Assembly (NCBI GenBank): GCA_020056635.1
Contig: JAGVHI010000003.1
Location: forward strand, 28,638-92,637
Reading direction: 5' to 3'
Length of the DNA: 64,000 bases
From: an archaeon
GTDB lineage: Archaea > Micrarchaeota > Micrarchaeia > Anstonellales > Anstonellaceae
Below the pieces are notes generated by a model. That model was not told where the DNA came from. It made no database searches and saw only the letters and a list, made by a program, of their open reading frames with translations. Every line of letters begins with the position of its first letter. Position 1 is the stretch's first letter. Made by a program: the position numbers and the translations under genes. Of this stretch, positions 867 to 53,415 are shown piece after piece.

Positions 867-1051
867 TGCCATAGTAGCTCAACCTGGGAGAGCAATCGGC
901 TGAAGACCGATGTGTTGCTGGTTCAAGCCCCTTTTTCTTTCTTGAGAAGAAAGAAAAAGGCCCTTGGGTTCAAAAAGAAAGAAAACGAGAGCAAAAACTC
1001 TCTGCTTCGAAATAAGGAATCCGATGGCTGCCAAAAAATCCGGCCTATGGC
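867..1051 (+). tRNA. tRNA-Phe (anticodon GAA) interrupted by an approximately 111-nt intron in the T-loop
   Basis: Exon 1 (867-924) carries the acceptor gccatag, D-arm tagctcaacctgggagagc, anticodon stem atcgg/ccgat, loop ctgaaga (U33, GAA), variable gtgtt, T-stem gctgg and T-loop ttca. Exon 2 (1036-1051) supplies aat, T-stem ccggc (which pairs gctgg with one G.U), acceptor ctatggc (a perfect 7/7 complement of gccatag) and discriminator a. An oligo-T tract follows at 1052-1058. Confidence 0.7.
925..1035 (+). other. Putative long tRNA intron in the T-loop between nt 57 and 58, with a 14-bp perfect palindrome at 929-959
   Basis: Removing it reconstitutes the canonical T-loop ttcaaat. It contains the hairpin cctttttctttctt-gag-aagaaagaaaaagg. 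It is homologous to the tRNA-Arg intron at 30221-30348. The exact junction is ambiguous by 1 nt because of the a-run. Confidence 0.5.
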
Positions 1052-1058
1052 ATTTTTT
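1052..1058 (+). terminator. Oligo-T tract (ttttttt) directly after the tRNA-Phe discriminator; archaeal-style terminator
   Basis: Seven consecutive T immediately 3' of the tRNA. Confidence 0.4.
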
Positions 1059-4731: not shown

Positions 4732-6324
4732 TTATTTTTTGCTGCGCCCTAAGTTGTAAATATCCAGCGCTAGGTCGTGTTTCGAATCCAGGGAGCGGCT
4801 AATTGCTGAAAGGGCCAGCTGTTTCATTTCAAGGAATTTCTCACGCCCCACCTCGACATTGCCGATTGAGTAGCGCTTGTTCTTGGTGTTGAAGCAGAAC
4901 ATGCAGTCTGTGAGGTTTTCGCAATTGTGGCAATAGAGACAGTCGGAGCAAGTGCGGCAGGAGTCCATCTCAAAGCAGCGCCTAAGCTTCACTGACCAGT
5001 AGCAGTTTATGCAGAACTCCGAATCGAGAAGCGAGGTGCAGCCAAACGCATGCTCCGTGCTGCGGGGCCAGAAGGTGTAACCGCAGTATTTTGAATAGAC
5101 CGCAGGGGAGGAGCGGTAGCAGTTTGTGGAGCTGCTCGAGGTTGCGACATCAATGAGGTTTGAGTGCGTGCCCTCCTGGTACTCGCTTGTGAAGAACGCG
5201 ATTGGGGAAATTTTTTCGTGGGAATTGGAAAGTGTTAGGGATGTGGCCTCGCCTTCGCCAATTTTTGCCTGCTCGCCTAATGCAATGGCCTCTTCGCGCT
5301 TGAGCAATCTTTCTTTAGGGATTTCGAAATAGGATGCATAATCGTAGCGCACGACTTTCTTTTTGCTGAATGCGGAGGGGATGTATTCGATTTTGCGCGT
5401 GTGGCGCATGAGCCATTCTGAGTACGCATCCATGTCACCGGAAGGCGGTTTTCCAAACAGGAGGGAATAGGTTTTGGCAAATGCGGTTTCCATGGGCCGT
5501 TTGTCAGTTGGCTCAGGCTTCTGGGTTTGCAATGTGATTTCCGGCTTCATTCCACTGCACTTTGCAGCGATATCTACAAGAGCAGGCAGCTTCTTCTTCT
5601 TTTTCAGCATGTGGGCCATTTCGGAGAGCAGTTTTTCCCTTATCTGCGCGTATTTTTCTGGAGGCAGCTCAAGGTTCCCGATTGCGTGGCGCCTGTTCTT
5701 GACGTTGAAGCAGAACATGCAGTCCTGGCAAGTGTCGAGGTTGTGGGAGTAGTAGCAGTCGGAGCAGTTCTGCGCCATCCAAAGCTCCAAGCACCGCTTG
5801 TCACGGAATGTCTCGAAGCAGTTTATGCAGTGCGCAGATTCCCCAATCGCGTTGCCGCCGAAGCACTCCTCATTCAATCGCCCGTGAGTGGAATATGCCA
5901 TGTACTTGCAGTCGTTGTAAAGCCCGGTCTGGTGCATGAAATAGGAATCGGAGATGTTAGAGCTTCGTTCGACCTGCCCGGAATTGCCAAGAATGATATT
6001 GCCTGCGTAATAGAAGCGGTCGGAGAGGGAGGAGAGGAGCGAATCGATGTCTTTTATCTCATTTAGCGAGAGAGGCTCAAATTTCTTGTTGAAATCAATC
6101 TCTTCCAGCCCGACCCATTTTGAATTTTCTGAATATTCGGAAATAGCGTACGCAATCTCGCTGCCGCAAACGCTTGATTTCCGGTATTTCATTGGCAGAT
6201 TGAACCGGGTGAGCCAGGGGATGTAATCCGAGAGCGGGCCGATGTCCTGCTTGAAAATGACCCGAGAGACGCTGCGCCATTTCTTTTCCAATACAGGGAG
6301 GCATTCGGAATCCATTGGGAGCAC
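4732..6324 (-). CDS. Cys-rich protein with an internally duplicated multi-CxxC module (function unknown)
   Basis: 530 aa. Two ~150-aa repeats each end in C-x2-C...C-x2-C-x2-C...CMFCFN(V/T)KN(R/K)R(H/Y)(A/S)IGN(L/V)E(L/V). Confidence 0.6.
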   Translation of the reverse strand: MLPMDSECLPVLEKKWRSVSRVIFKQDIGPLSDYIPWLTRFNLPMKYRKSSVCGSEIAYAISEYSENSKWVGLEEIDFNKKFEPLSLNEIKDIDSLLSSLSDRFYYAGNIILGNSGQVERSSNISDSYFMHQTGLYNDCKYMAYSTHGRLNEECFGGNAIGESAHCINCFETFRDKRCLELWMAQNCSDCYYSHNLDTCQDCMFCFNVKNRRHAIGNLELPPEKYAQIREKLLSEMAHMLKKKKKLPALVDIAAKCSGMKPEITLQTQKPEPTDKRPMETAFAKTYSLLFGKPPSGDMDAYSEWLMRHTRKIEYIPSAFSKKKVVRYDYASYFEIPKERLLKREEAIALGEQAKIGEGEATSLTLSNSHEKISPIAFFTSEYQEGTHSNLIDVATSSSSTNCYRSSPAVYSKYCGYTFWPRSTEHAFGCTSLLDSEFCINCYWSVKLRRCFEMDSCRTCSDCLYCHNCENLTDCMFCFNTKNKRYSIGNVEVGREKFLEMKQLALSAISRSLDSKHDLALDIYNLGRSKK

Positions 6325-23059: not shown

Positions 23060-24487
23060 ATGAAGAGCGGAATTATTGCATTTGCGGTTCTGGCTGTTTT
23101 TGCGGGATTGGCTGTGGCAGGTTCGTTCACAGCCCCTATTTCAGATGTTACAATATATGGGAGCAATGCCGCTTATGTCATGAGGTATGGGAATGCGGAA
23201 TTGGGGCAGGGGAGTAATTACCTTGCGCTTGAGAATTTCTCAACTAGCGCGGATATAGGGACATTGGATGCATTCGGGAATGGGGTTTCGGTTGCGGAGT
23301 ACAAGCGGTATATTGAGGAAACTAGGGAGAATAGGAGCAGGTTTTTGACGGTTGAGGAGCTGCTGAACAAATCGGTTGGCAAAAGCGTCACAATAATTAC
23401 GGAGAGGGGGCAGGAAAGCGGAAAATTGGTGTGGTATGCAACCGGTTTTGTCGGGCTTGCGTCCAATTCAGGAGGGTCGCTTCTTGTGTACAGGATTGAG
23501 GATATCAGGCAGTTGATTGCGCCAGCAGCAGAATATGAAAAAAGCGAGGAGATAAAAAATGTGAAAAACGGGCTTGGAGTAACCCTTGATGCGGAAAAGG
23601 GGGGAGCGGCAAAAATCGGGCTGGGCTATGTTGATTACGGCGCAAGCTGGAGCGCGGGCTACCGCGTAAGGCTTTCATCGGATTCCCCAAGCGGAATTCT
23701 TGAGCTTTCTGGGTTTGCAAATGTGCAAAATAGCATGTATGAGGATTGGGAGAACGCGAGCCTGAGGGTGGTAGTGGGCTCGCCCTACATGACACGGAAC
23801 TACATGCCATATCGGAGCTATTACCTGAATAACATGAAAGCCCAGGATGCATATGAAATGGTTGGGGCTGCATCGCCTGCGCCAAGCGCGCCTGATGTGG
23901 GAACATCTGACCTGTCGAATTACTATGTTTATTCGCTGAACAGGAAAGTGACTTTGAAGAATGGGGAGAGCGCAAGCGTGCCGCTCCTGAATGCAAAAAT
24001 AGCCTATGTGAGGGAGAATGTTTGGGACACGGACATGGTTGCGCCGCAGCGGGTGCTCAAATTCAACAATACCGCATCGGCGCCGCTTGCGTCAGGTGTA
24101 GCAAGCGTGTATTTGGGAACTGAATTCCTGGGGCAGGCAAGCGCGGCTTTTGCGGGAAGGGGGAATCCGGTTGAATTTGCATATGCGTCAATGCCTGAGT
24201 TCACAGTGAAAAAGGAGCTTTCGCAGGAGACTTCGGTTGTTGGGAATGCGAGGATTACTGCATACTTGGGAAACCTCACGATAAAGAATGGGGGGAGCAA
24301 AGAGGAGGAGGTTGTGGTGCGCGAGCAGATGAATTACGGGGACAAGGTCGAGTTCGTAAGCTCGGATGCGCCATCATCCGTAAAGCCCGGCAATGTGATT
24401 GAGTGGAGGGTAAAGGTGCCAGCGGGAGTTGAGAAAAAAATCGCGTATGAGTACAGGACAATCTATTACCAGCAGAAGTATTACTAG
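23060..24487 (+). CDS. Secreted hypothetical protein (signal peptide)
   Basis: N-terminal signal MKSGIIAFAVLAVFAGLAVAG, 475 aa. A T-rich tract and a hairpin follow at 24490-24560. Confidence 0.5.
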   Translation: MKSGIIAFAVLAVFAGLAVAGSFTAPISDVTIYGSNAAYVMRYGNAELGQGSNYLALENFSTSADIGTLDAFGNGVSVAEYKRYIEETRENRSRFLTVEELLNKSVGKSVTIITERGQESGKLVWYATGFVGLASNSGGSLLVYRIEDIRQLIAPAAEYEKSEEIKNVKNGLGVTLDAEKGGAAKIGLGYVDYGASWSAGYRVRLSSDSPSGILELSGFANVQNSMYEDWENASLRVVVGSPYMTRNYMPYRSYYLNNMKAQDAYEMVGAASPAPSAPDVGTSDLSNYYVYSLNRKVTLKNGESASVPLLNAKIAYVRENVWDTDMVAPQRVLKFNNTASAPLASGVASVYLGTEFLGQASAAFAGRGNPVEFAYASMPEFTVKKELSQETSVVGNARITAYLGNLTIKNGGSKEEEVVVREQMNYGDKVEFVSSDAPSSVKPGNVIEWRVKVPAGVEKKIAYEYRTIYYQQKYY

Positions 24488-24583
24488 AGCGCCCTCTTTT
24501 TCTTTCTTTTTTCCCGTTCCCCATTTCAGCCCATCCCTTTCGGATGGGCGCTAGTTTAAATAAGAAGAGCGAGAGATTGCCAT

Positions 24584-30015: not shown

Positions 30016-30169
30016 CTGGAGCCTATTGCAGGGGCGCGGCTGGGACTAATCAAGGAATATAAAGCTATTATGGGATAAGAATGGCGCAACGCCCCTGGCC
30101 TATAACCGGGGCTAGTTAGGAATTGGAAAAATGAAAACGGGCCCGTAGCTCAGCTTGGATAGAGCGGCA

Positions 30170-30192
30170 AGAGGGGGCAGCCCCTCCCGCAT
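30170..30192 (+). other. Putative 23-nt non-canonical tRNA intron between nt 29 and 30 of tRNA-Arg
   Basis: Contains its own hairpin gagggg-gcag-cccctc. Its removal restores a 5-bp anticodon stem. Confidence 0.45.
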
Positions 30193-30220
30193 GCCTTCTA
30201 AGCTGTAGGTCATGGGTTCA

Positions 30221-30348
30221 GGCCCTTTTCTTTCCGTCCGGAAAGAAAAGCCCCTGGGGAAAAGAAAGAATTTTACTGCGGAAAATATCGCCTTTCGGCG
30301 TTTTTCCGCCCTGAAATATCTTCTCCCTATGGTTATAGGCCGCCCAAA
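30221..30348 (+). other. Putative 128-nt T-loop intron of tRNA-Arg, with an 11-bp perfect hairpin at 30225-30250
   Basis: Removal reconstitutes T-loop ttcaaat. Hairpin cttttctttcc-gtcc-ggaaagaaaag. Homologous to the tRNA-Phe intron at 925-1035. Confidence 0.5.
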
Positions 30349-30400
30349 AATCCCATCGGGCCCGTCCATTATAGAGGCTAGAAGCAGGGAGGTAGGGAAC

Positions 30401-51231: not shown

Positions 51232-51287
51232 GCTGCCCCTGTTTCCTTTTTATTCTTTCAAGGAGTAGCATTGGTGCTGCATTTTAT

Positions 51288-51359
51288 GGGCTAGTGGCGC
51301 AACGGTAGCGCGCCTGCATGGCATGCAGGAGGCTGGGGGCTCGAATCCCCCCTAGTCCA
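51288..51359 (+). tRNA. tRNA-Ala (anticodon GGC)
   Basis: Acceptor gggctag/ctagtcc with the G3:U70 Ala identity pair. Anticodon stem cctgc/gcagg, loop atggcat. T-arm ggggg-ctcgaat-ccccc. Confidence 0.9.
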
Positions 51360-51441
51360 TTTCAATCACAACAAGAACGATAAAGGATGAGGCGCTTTTG
51401 CGAAAAAGAAGTTATTTATACTGAACAGACAATAGTTTGTT

Positions 51442-53277: not shown

Positions 53278-53391
53278 TGACATTGCCTTAATTTAGCACA
53301 CATATAATTCCGTTGTGTAAAAATCGACAAATTAAAATCGGAAAGAAAAGAGAAAGGAAAAAAGAAGAAAAAGAAAAAAGAAAGAAAATTC

Positions 53392-53415
53392 ATGTTCGGG
53401 TTGGAAACCCGAACA
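53392..53415 (-). terminator. Perfect hairpin (gttcgggtt-ggaa-acccgaac) followed on the minus strand by a pyrimidine/T-rich tract, downstream of the 53455-54138 gene
   Basis: 9-bp stem. The adjacent 53320-53390 region is an A/G-rich low-complexity tract on plus, hence T/C-rich on minus. Confidence 0.35.

Follow-up and report, generated by a model that had tools for sequence, protein, structure and literature searches.

The stretch analysed here, 64,000 nt of contig JAGVHI010000003.1 (hereafter the window), carries genes for archaeal PolD, Topo VI and ABCE1, and the named relatives of its DP2 all belong to Candidatus Micrarchaeota or Micrarchaeia. Only two intact tRNAs are called in the 64 kb by ARAGORN and Rfam, tRNA-Gly (1095-1170) and tRNA-Ala (51287-51360). 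Genes for tRNA-Phe and tRNA-Arg, missed by both programs in the unspliced genomic sequence, were recovered by in-silico splicing, which brings the number of tRNA genes in the window to four, two of them interrupted. Removal of 925-1035 gives a canonical tRNA-Phe(gaa) of 74 nt with ARAGORN, and the unspliced gene reaches 25.4 bits with the Rfam tRNA model, under the gathering score. Removal of 30170-30192 and 30220-30347 gives a canonical tRNA-Arg(tct) of 75 nt. Both genes are interrupted in the T-loop, between positions 56 and 57, and the two T-loop insertions are very probably spliced introns that contain a homologous module, which is the subject of this work.

Archaeal and yeast pre-tRNAs are cut between bases 2 and 3 of a 3-nt bulge, and each cut bulge sits 3′ of one strand of a 4-bp helix. 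Using a bulge-helix-bulge (BHB) search with strict 4-3-4 geometry, a motif was found at both T-loop introns. For tRNA-Phe, the helix H is formed by TGGT (919-922, tRNA positions 51-54 on the exon strand) and GCCA (1030-1033), the 5′ and 3′ bulges are TCA (923-925) and AAA (1034-1036), and the inner helix h′ pairs AGCC (926-929) with GGCT (1026-1029). For tRNA-Arg, H is GGGT (30214-30217)/GCCC (30342-30345), the bulges are TCA (30218-30220) and AAA (30346-30348), and h′ is GGCC (30221-30224)/GGCC (30338-30341). The predicted cuts are UC↓A on the 5′ side and AA↓A on the 3′ side in both introns, and the differences between them are compensatory in both helices (U-A to G-C in H, A-U to G-C in h′). 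The first-pass annotation had read the inserted sequences correctly at 868-1052 and 30139-30364; the interval that it gave for the Phe insertion (925-1035) is exactly the BHB-defined intron, and its 30221-30348 for the Arg insertion becomes 30220-30347 after slippage by one A.

Both T-loop splice sites are relaxed BHB motifs of the HBh′ type, without an outer helix. The Arg motif is the minimum free energy (MFE) structure of the whole pre-tRNA as well as of the mini-substrate, and an identical HBh′ scheme is present at 56/57 of a tRNA-Ala (L013) and in a 5S rRNA gene (L028), where 8/8 pairs are Watson-Crick. The strict 4-3-4 search recovers the motif in only some of the related introns described below; the others, mostly copies at 37/38 and 53/54, need a looser geometry, and the 37/38 cases L019 and L041 were settled partly by hand. 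The short first intron of tRNA-Arg, as read from the sequence, has H GCGG/CCGC, bulges CAA and AUG and h′ GAGGGG/CCCCUC; its mini-substrate MFE gives only h′, not H, and its orthologue in L039 keeps H and has h′ exchanged for GGAA/UUCC, which is compensatory.

The 29/30 and 56/57 sites are known non-canonical positions of tRNA introns (PMC4090602). In ARMAN-2 (Candidatus Micrarchaeum acidiphilum), a member of the same phylum, T-loop introns occur at 53/54 and 59/60 with strict or relaxed BHB motifs, and the epsilon2 endonuclease accepts relaxed motifs at non-canonical sites, with cleavage of relaxed motifs demonstrated in vitro (PMC3239211, PMC12397907). Over half of the tRNA genes are disrupted in this lineage, namely 56% (PMC3239211, PMC5829648), and DPANN endonucleases with extra loops accompany many disrupted tRNA genes (PMC5829648). 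The passages searched on ARMAN-2 deal with intron positions and motifs, not with a conserved intron core, and mention neither 56/57 nor the module (PMC3239211, PMC12397907). Judged from the sequence, both insertions are very probably archaeal introns at position 56/57 that the protein splicing endonuclease excises.

In the precursor, the 5′ half of the T-arm would pair through its final four bases (UGGU or GGGU) with the 3′ end of the intron (GCCA or GCCC), giving a 4-bp central helix, with the 5′ cut in the 3-nt bulge UC↓A and the 3′ cut in AA↓A, while the first bases of the intron (AGCC or GGCC) would form the inner helix with GGCU or GGCC near its 3′ end. Ligation of the exons would give back UUCAAAU. 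The KGGUUC T-arm of any tRNA would offer the same docking site, and a common docking of KGGU with the intron end GCCM is the simplest explanation for the same intron position in tRNA-Phe, tRNA-Arg and tRNA-Ala.

The introns had been considered too short to encode a homing endonuclease, and they are indeed too short for any protein: at 111 and 128 nt they contain no open reading frame (ORF). Nor does any Rfam intron family match either of them at the gathering score or at E <= 1, and self-splicing (group I or II) and homing-endonuclease introns were ruled out on these two grounds. Rfam 15 returned over the introns only the sub-threshold tRNA match and chance miRNA-hairpin matches. Split tRNA halves were rejected, the halves being adjacent and in the same direction, as were a C/D box sRNA in the window introns (boxes absent) and a CRISPR repeat (array absent).

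The proposal that the two insertions are related introns at one tRNA position is borne out by the alignment and by a collinear core. Their local alignment score is 37, compared with 17.9 ± 2.8 for dinucleotide shuffles (0/2000 reaching 37). Aligned to the introns, low-complexity tracts from elsewhere in the window reach 18-32, so that the raw score by itself is weak evidence. With MAFFT, the introns align over the first ~60 nt and then again at the 3′ end. The common part consists, in this order, of a prefix, a pyrimidine arm (strand 1), a first purine tract (strand 2), CCCYTGGG and a second purine tract (strand 3). The collinear core pattern has exactly these two matches in the 64 kb and 0 in 100 shuffles, and this shared order of parts is stronger evidence of relatedness than the alignment score. 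The motif ggaaagaaaag, reported earlier to reappear at 53320-53390, is indeed present there, but this tract is not a member of the family, since it has no hairpin partner and no centre motif. Read on the minus strand, 53341-53395 is a T-rich, terminator-like tract after a minus-strand ORF. Gene ends in this genome are followed by tracts such as CTCTTTTTCTTTCTTTTTTCCC (24483-24515 and 53341-53395, minus strand). These are similar to strand 1, so that the pyrimidine arm of the module and archaeal oligo-T terminators look alike.

A scan of archaeal and bacterial assemblies with the collinear core pattern, using one genome per species, returned 36 loci, almost all in metagenome-assembled genomes (MAGs) labelled as DPANN archaea. 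Most of these MAGs are labelled Micrarchaeota, some Aenigmatarchaeota, Nanoarchaeia or Iainarchaeum, and a few only 'uncultured archaeon'; one low-coverage contig is labelled Thermoplasmatales. Viral contigs gave 0 matches to the core pattern, and a viral or plasmid origin was rejected on this basis. A freer regular expression and a looser metagenome scan, in which only ~12 of 121 matches were true elements and the rest mostly chance matches in coding sequence, led to a set of 50 elements, 43 of them unique. Instead of the small family first suggested, there are thus about 50 copies, the 36 loci in species-representative genomes and further ones on metagenome contigs.

The core is common to introns of Phe, Arg, Ala, Tyr, Cys, His and other tRNAs (Table 1). 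A spread of the family among RNA genes, supposed before for tRNA genes, agrees with its presence in tRNA, 5S and 23S genes, whereas a specificity for the T-loop is contradicted by copies at at least five tRNA positions, in both rRNAs and outside genes. Some tRNA positions are rough, as the ARAGORN intron mode, run on all excisions, was too permissive, the remainder being taken up by its internal intron model, and its output was filtered. Every copy within an RNA gene reads in the sense direction; outside genes, where both orientations occur, the L002 copy is antisense to the adjacent tRNA and the L005 copy exactly fills the gap between convergent ORFs (distances -2 and 0). Rfam is silent at the gathering score on the L028 host gene, which we take to be 5S rRNA from its likeness to the conserved region CCCAU(N)CCGAAC(N)CAGAAGUGAA; 5S genes may be under-annotated in these genomes. 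For the 23S intron of L036, there are two candidate boundary motifs, neither of the clean 3-nt-bulge form. Because of such introns, standard DPANN annotation overlooks essential tRNA genes as well as a 5S rRNA gene. No Rfam 15 family matches the module, and a limited search of open-access papers, including those on DPANN rRNA introns, found no description of it.

Table 1. Interrupted tRNA genes and core modules of the window, and copies of the module and orthologous genes at other loci (L numbers).
Feature	Location	Strand	Details
tRNA-Phe(GAA) gene	868-1052	+	exon 1 868-924, exon 2 1036-1052; T7 run downstream
tRNA-Phe T-loop intron	925-1035	+	111 nt, position 56/57
Phe core module	925-985	+	prefix AAGCC 925-929, strand 1 930-943, loop GAG 944-946, strand 2 947-960, centre CCCTTGGG 961-968, linker TTC 969-971, strand 3 972-985
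Phe intron, second small hairpin (GAGAG/CTCTC)	987-1002	+	MFE fold; in variable part of intron
tRNA-Arg(UCU) gene, two introns	30139-30364	+	ARAGORN after in-silico splicing
tRNA-Arg intron 1	30170-30192	+	23 nt, position 29/30; ordinary BHB intron without core module
tRNA-Arg T-loop intron	30220-30347	+	128 nt, position 56/57
Arg core module	30220-30270	+	prefix AGGCC 30220-30224, strand 1 30225-30235, loop GTCC 30236-30239, strand 2 30240-30250, centre CCCCTGGGG 30251-30259, strand 3 30260-30270
Arg intron, second hairpin (GCGGAAAA ... TTTTCCGC)	30278-30309	+	MFE fold
Polypurine tract, non-member	53341-53395		no pyrimidine partner, no centre motif; between convergent ORFs
Relative with DP2 77% identical to window	L039		tRNA-Arg(UCU) with both introns at the same places
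Relative with DP2 61% identical	L040		tRNA-Arg(UCU) with 69-nt T-loop intron at the same place, without core
Relative with DP2 60% identical	L041		tRNA-Arg(UCU) without T-loop intron; core at 37/38
Very similar tRNA-Arg(UCU)	L032		core in D-loop
tRNA D-loop copies	L010, L032		
tRNA ~26-30 copies	L006, L104		
tRNA 37/38 copies	L009, L018-L020, L029-L031, L041, L131		
tRNA 53/54 copies	L007/L034		
tRNA 56/57 copies	window (two), L013, L039		
Copies directly 3′ of tRNA ends	L015, L026, L132		
Copies directly past stop codons or between convergent ORFs	L005, L008, L014, L033		
5S rRNA gene copy	L028, 2400-2620		96-nt intron with module; 8/8 Watson-Crick splice motif
Large-subunit (23S) rRNA gene copy	L036		archaeal large-subunit Rfam match spans element

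Some individual copies have features of their own. At L025 (~5480-5700) the element lies within a tandemly repeated unit of ~110 nt and has a 36-nt hairpin insert in its apical loop. At L023 (597-760) and L162, the element upstream of the start of a glmS-like gene (MCGIIGY...) has an apical insert of 46 nt, and several AAGACC repeats flank it. Just downstream of the elements L003 (~2280-2326) and L035 (~95-140), which belong to one genome, GTGATGA ... CTGA resembles the C and D boxes of guide RNAs, with no Rfam match at the gathering score.

Analysis of the core across the family revealed two relations between its strands. The first is a hairpin of strands 1 and 2, with 14 bp in the MFE fold of the Phe core and 11 bp in that of the Arg core, and with only 5 internal mismatches in 490 pairs over all unique versions. 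Its apical loop is of variable length (0 to 60 nt), as expected of a real hairpin, and extra hairpins can lie in it. The second is that strand 3 is the mirror of strand 2, neither a direct nor an inverted repeat. Perfect mirrors are found in 39 of the 43 unique elements and perfect direct repeats in 14; for the Phe core, the mirror score is 12 and the direct score 10. Within an element, strands 2 and 3 have a mirror identity of 0.989; permuted partners give 0.902 ± 0.011, with 0.938 as the highest value among 2000 permutations. Since the elements are kin by descent, with ~8-10 independent variant patterns, permutation tests overstate their independence. The earlier description as palindrome-containing is therefore right about the hairpin and understates a three-segment module with mirror symmetry.

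Levels were counted by script from an anchor at the hairpin base, because a realignment of the low-complexity tracts would shift G positions, and U-A·A or C-G·G is read at 204 of 228 of them. Where strand 2 has a G, the three strands agree in register in 28 of 39 cases (72%); sliding strand 3 by 1-2 lowers this to at most 2 of 40. All three strands vary jointly across at least 8 variants; the G spacings include 3-4, 3-5, 5-4, 4-5, 6-4, 4-1-3, 3-1-3-5 and 2-3-3 as well as the flipped pattern of L039, and the mirror rule is kept in each. In the T-loop intron of L039, orthologous to the Arg intron of the window, all three core strands are flipped (CTTTCTTTTT / AAAAAGAAAG / AAAGAAAAA), and its second hairpin (GCGAAAAA ... 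TTTTTCGC) is compensatory relative to that of the window. The second hairpin of the Phe intron shows no conservation in other family members. Finally, a prefix A-A-G goes with a centre C-T-T and A-G-G with C-C-T in 40 of 44 elements, independently of other subtypes; the Arg combination, AGG with CCT, is common to 11 other elements. These pairs, in the register of the hairpin after two unpaired C's, suggest a 3-bp closing helix.

Since a mirror repeat cannot be produced by template copying, its symmetry must be maintained by selection. A triple helix is the one established structural reason for a homopurine mirror repeat (PMC11667243, PMC12214015), and a strand 3 antiparallel to strand 2 with A-A and G-G contacts corresponds to the purine-type reverse-Hoogsteen geometry (PMC13541005). 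At the level of sequence, the three-way change is the signature of a purine-type triple helix. In the proposed fold, the pyrimidine and purine strands would form the 10-14 bp hairpin, a short C/G-rich turn would follow, and the second purine strand would return along the hairpin, its A facing A-U and its G facing G-C pairs, the base being closed by the 3-bp helix of the prefix (ARG) with the turn (CYU). We regard the question of whether this triple-stranded fold is what selection maintains as evenly balanced. The triple helix may form, and form in RNA: the pyrimidine partner lies on the same strand, which makes a folded single strand likelier than duplex H-DNA, and the sense RNA is favoured because it is certainly made as part of the pre-tRNA or pre-rRNA. 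Our best guess is that the module, as a compact fold complete in itself, stops a selfish insert from disturbing the folding of the host RNA, or that it stabilises the RNA.

The alternative that survives best, although we consider it unlikely, places the triplex in DNA. The mirror repeat of the H-motif, together with the inverted repeat, would form H-DNA or a single-stranded DNA triplex acting on the chromosome, for example as a bidirectional T-rich terminator or polymerase block at gene ends, or as a break- or recombination-prone site that drives its own spread, with the introns as tolerated by-products. This would be consistent with the mirror symmetry that defines H-DNA and with the stability of purine-motif triplexes in DNA (PMC11667243, PMC12214015). 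It would also fit the extragenic copies next to stop codons and tRNA 3′ ends or filling a convergent-ORF gap as in L005, the T4-T5 tract of strand 1, which is like the terminator-like tracts of the window, the two T-tracts of the opposite strand, and a hairpin nearly without G.U pairs. However, a mirror repeat alone suffices for H-DNA, whereas strand 1, the variable loop and the prefix-centre pairs indicate folding of a single strand. Moreover, a T5 tract (T9 in L036) lies in sense orientation inside tRNA and 23S genes that need read-through, and the module is always sense inside RNA genes.

The order of strands on the antisense transcript (pyrimidine, turn, pyrimidine, loop, purine) is that of pyrimidine-motif RNA triple helices, which are far better established than purine-motif ones (PMC13541005), and a functional antisense RNA with U·A-U and C+·G-C triples, like the 3′-end elements of MALAT1 and PAN, would explain the covariation equally well. 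The extragenic L002 copy is antisense to its adjacent tRNA. We nevertheless find this improbable, as two T5 tracts are met before the purine strand, so that termination would tend to come first, all copies within tRNA and rRNA genes are in sense orientation, where the sense RNA is certainly made, and evidence of antisense promoters was not seen. Comparably improbable is a platform on which one protein (Sm-like, Alba or a DPANN-specific RNA-binding protein) reads all three segments without any triplex. The strong conservation of the core over genomes and contexts and its U-rich and A-rich single strands, typical protein sites, would agree with such a platform, but a symmetric reader would select direct repeats (single strands) or inverted repeats (duplex DNA), never a mirror, and variants that differ in sequence and keep the relation between strands fit the pairing rules of nucleic acids better. 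Decaying mobile DNA or plain low complexity, with the likeness due to T-loop splice constraints and AG/CT composition and the mirror incidental, is already disfavoured and very improbable: the 18-32 of other window tracts against 37 for the intron pair, and the mirror identity expected of information-poor A/G tracts (0.90 for permuted partners), face a collinear pattern absent from shuffles, a 57-nt core shared at 98% identity with an unrelated host gene in another MAG, in-register G-level agreement of 72% against <= 5% when slid, three strands changed in concert in the orthologous L039 intron, and a near-perfect hairpin over 43 sequence versions.

Comparison of orthologues and nearest relatives bears on how the module came to its hosts. 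The order tRNA-Arg / UPF0147 / DP1 / DP2 is kept in the relatives L039, L040 and L041. The genes of the window and these three tRNA-Arg orthologues are all canonical after in-silico splicing, so that they are not pseudogenes, a possibility left open at first. Intron-free orthologues, for which a check had been suggested, were found only in part: L041 is without the T-loop intron and has the core at 37/38, and L040 has the T-loop intron without the core. The L040 intron (2861-2929) is A-rich and shows no sign of the core, which either was inserted into an intron that the lineage of the window already had or decayed in L040. No tRNA-Phe orthologue was found in a search via the neighbouring gene RidA, because synteny is not kept.

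The core nearest to that of the Phe intron is in a 37/38 intron of tRNA-Tyr in another MAG (L030), with 98% identity over 57 nt. The Arg core is 75% identical to the Phe core, ranking 26th of 49, and its own nearest relatives are L041 and L009, with 88% each. The closest relatives thus lie in other genomes and at other positions, and the two window introns belong to one family without either being a recent copy of the other, which goes against the direct spread between the two window genes that had been considered. Duplications of the flanks (16-23 nt) accompany only 3 of 50 elements, and two of these are tRNA 3′ ends. At L026 (7365-7586, minus strand) and L002 (700-941), a complete tRNA gene stands on one side of the element and a second copy of that tRNA's 3′ end, 22-23 nt long, on the other, a layout that resembles the att sites of a very short integrated-element remnant; at L002 the element is antisense to the tRNA. 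Terminal inverted repeats are absent, the 5′ end (AAGCC + CTTTTTCTTTC) and the 3′ end (AAAAAGAAAG) being mirror-related. The suggested likeness to a MITE therefore fails for both terminal inverted repeats and target-site duplications.

The distribution nonetheless points to spread, with many host genes and positions, variable occupancy of orthologues and near-identical cores across genomes, and we think it probable that the module spreads between sites and genomes. A module of ~55 nt would have spread widely among Micrarchaeota and neighbouring DPANN archaea, with one copy in each of the two window introns. It would persist where it is harmless, either as an intron around which a splice motif can form or just past gene ends; within RNA genes, it would be harmless where a splice motif can arise from its first bases (RGCC), a 3′ tail and the local exon. 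The likeliest reading is a structured mini-element that spreads horizontally and is kept only where harmless. The explanation as a whole, which combines spliced introns, a spreading module and a triple-stranded fold, is slightly favoured on balance.

Apart from the kinship of the elements and the scores of other low-complexity tracts given above, several points weigh against it. The mini-substrate MFE of the Phe intron and of L013 favours the T-stem plus h′ over H, and the outer helix h of a full BHB is absent in both T-loop introns. In the TTC subtype the mirror rule does not extend into the linker. Strands 2 and 3 were in part fixed in the pattern with which the genomes were scanned, and just ~15 elements came in addition from the freer regular expression and the looser metagenome search. 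The covariation is the same for sense RNA, antisense RNA and single-stranded DNA, and the non-Watson-Crick pairs of the hairpin, 3 C.A and 2 U.G, are too few to decide the choice of strand. Transposases and reverse transcriptases were not seen, the neighbouring genes not having been screened systematically, nor were terminal inverted repeats or target duplications of a regular kind, and the case for mobility is accordingly purely distributional. The main weakness is that, to our knowledge, long triple helices of the purine motif built entirely of RNA are not established, and they are considered weak.

The closest known counterpart is the set of transposed tRNA introns of Thermoproteales (Fujishima et al. 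2010, via PMC4090602 and PMC3239211), which, as summarised there, vary between related species, encode no protein and have an unexplained mechanism of spread, as here. Similar introns likewise occur in tRNAs of different specificity, and position or presence differs among orthologues, the core of tRNA-Arg(UCU) being found at 56/57, at 37/38 or in the D-loop. In contrast, the hosts here are Micrarchaeota and other DPANN archaea, not Crenarchaeota; the common part is a discrete, structured module in which three strands covary; and it also occurs in rRNA introns, outside genes and in many genomes, whereas the Thermoproteales introns lie within the tRNA set of one order. Related introns at one tRNA position are thus the Micrarchaeota counterpart of the intron transposition of Thermoproteales.

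Repetitive extragenic palindromic (REP) and MITE-like repeats (PMC3184786) are also short, non-coding, hairpin-forming and dispersed, often past genes or between convergent genes. Unlike them, the module lies within essential RNA genes as a spliceable intron and has a mirror symmetry that REP and MITE repeats lack, while terminal inverted repeats, regular target duplication and, among neighbours not systematically screened, an associated transposase are missing. The natural RNA triplexes of this length, such as the ENE (element for nuclear expression) of MALAT1 and PAN, are of the U·A-U type (PMC13541005), unlike the purine type proposed for the module. H-DNA and purine-type triplexes (PMC11667243, PMC13541005) share with the proposed fold a homopurine-homopyrimidine mirror tract, an antiparallel third strand, A·A-U(T) and G·G-C triples and a tight turn. 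A pyrimidine partner on the same strand, as in the module, is not required for H-DNA. We know of no H-DNA motif or RNA triple helix that forms a dispersed element inside archaeal introns. The BHB introns in 16S and 23S rRNA of Thermoproteales are likewise rRNA insertions removed via a BHB motif and patchy among relatives. They are often long and may encode LAGLIDADG homing endonucleases, whereas the inserts described here are ~80-110 nt and non-coding, share their core with tRNA introns and include one in 5S rRNA.

Two further observations concern the window itself. Over 1-64000 the GC skew is positive in all 4-kb bins (0.06-0.26) and the cumulative skew climbs without a turn; the long ORFs at 20-52 kb are mostly on the plus strand. 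Several Micrarchaeota DP2 homologues (P0017, P0049, P0070, P0072) are ~450 residues longer and have intein/LAGLIDADG Pfam domains, which are absent from the DP2 of the window.

The gain of protein-spliced introns in archaea, and by extension of tRNA introns in eukaryotes, is an open question for which the unexplained intron 'transposition' of Thermoproteales is the only precedent. The core module provides a recognisable and datable marker over genomes, genes and positions, with which gain, loss and movement can be counted, and its three-way covariation over many variants is rare evidence of a long natural purine-type triple helix. Tentatively, it may represent a previously undescribed class of element, a self-folding purine-type triplex of ~55 nt that moves horizontally among DPANN archaea and resides as an intron in tRNA, 5S and 23S genes or free-standing at gene ends. 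If this is true, the module would be a model of protein-spliced intron gain and, if it also folds in RNA, the first long natural all-RNA A·A-U / G·G-C triplex with covariation support.

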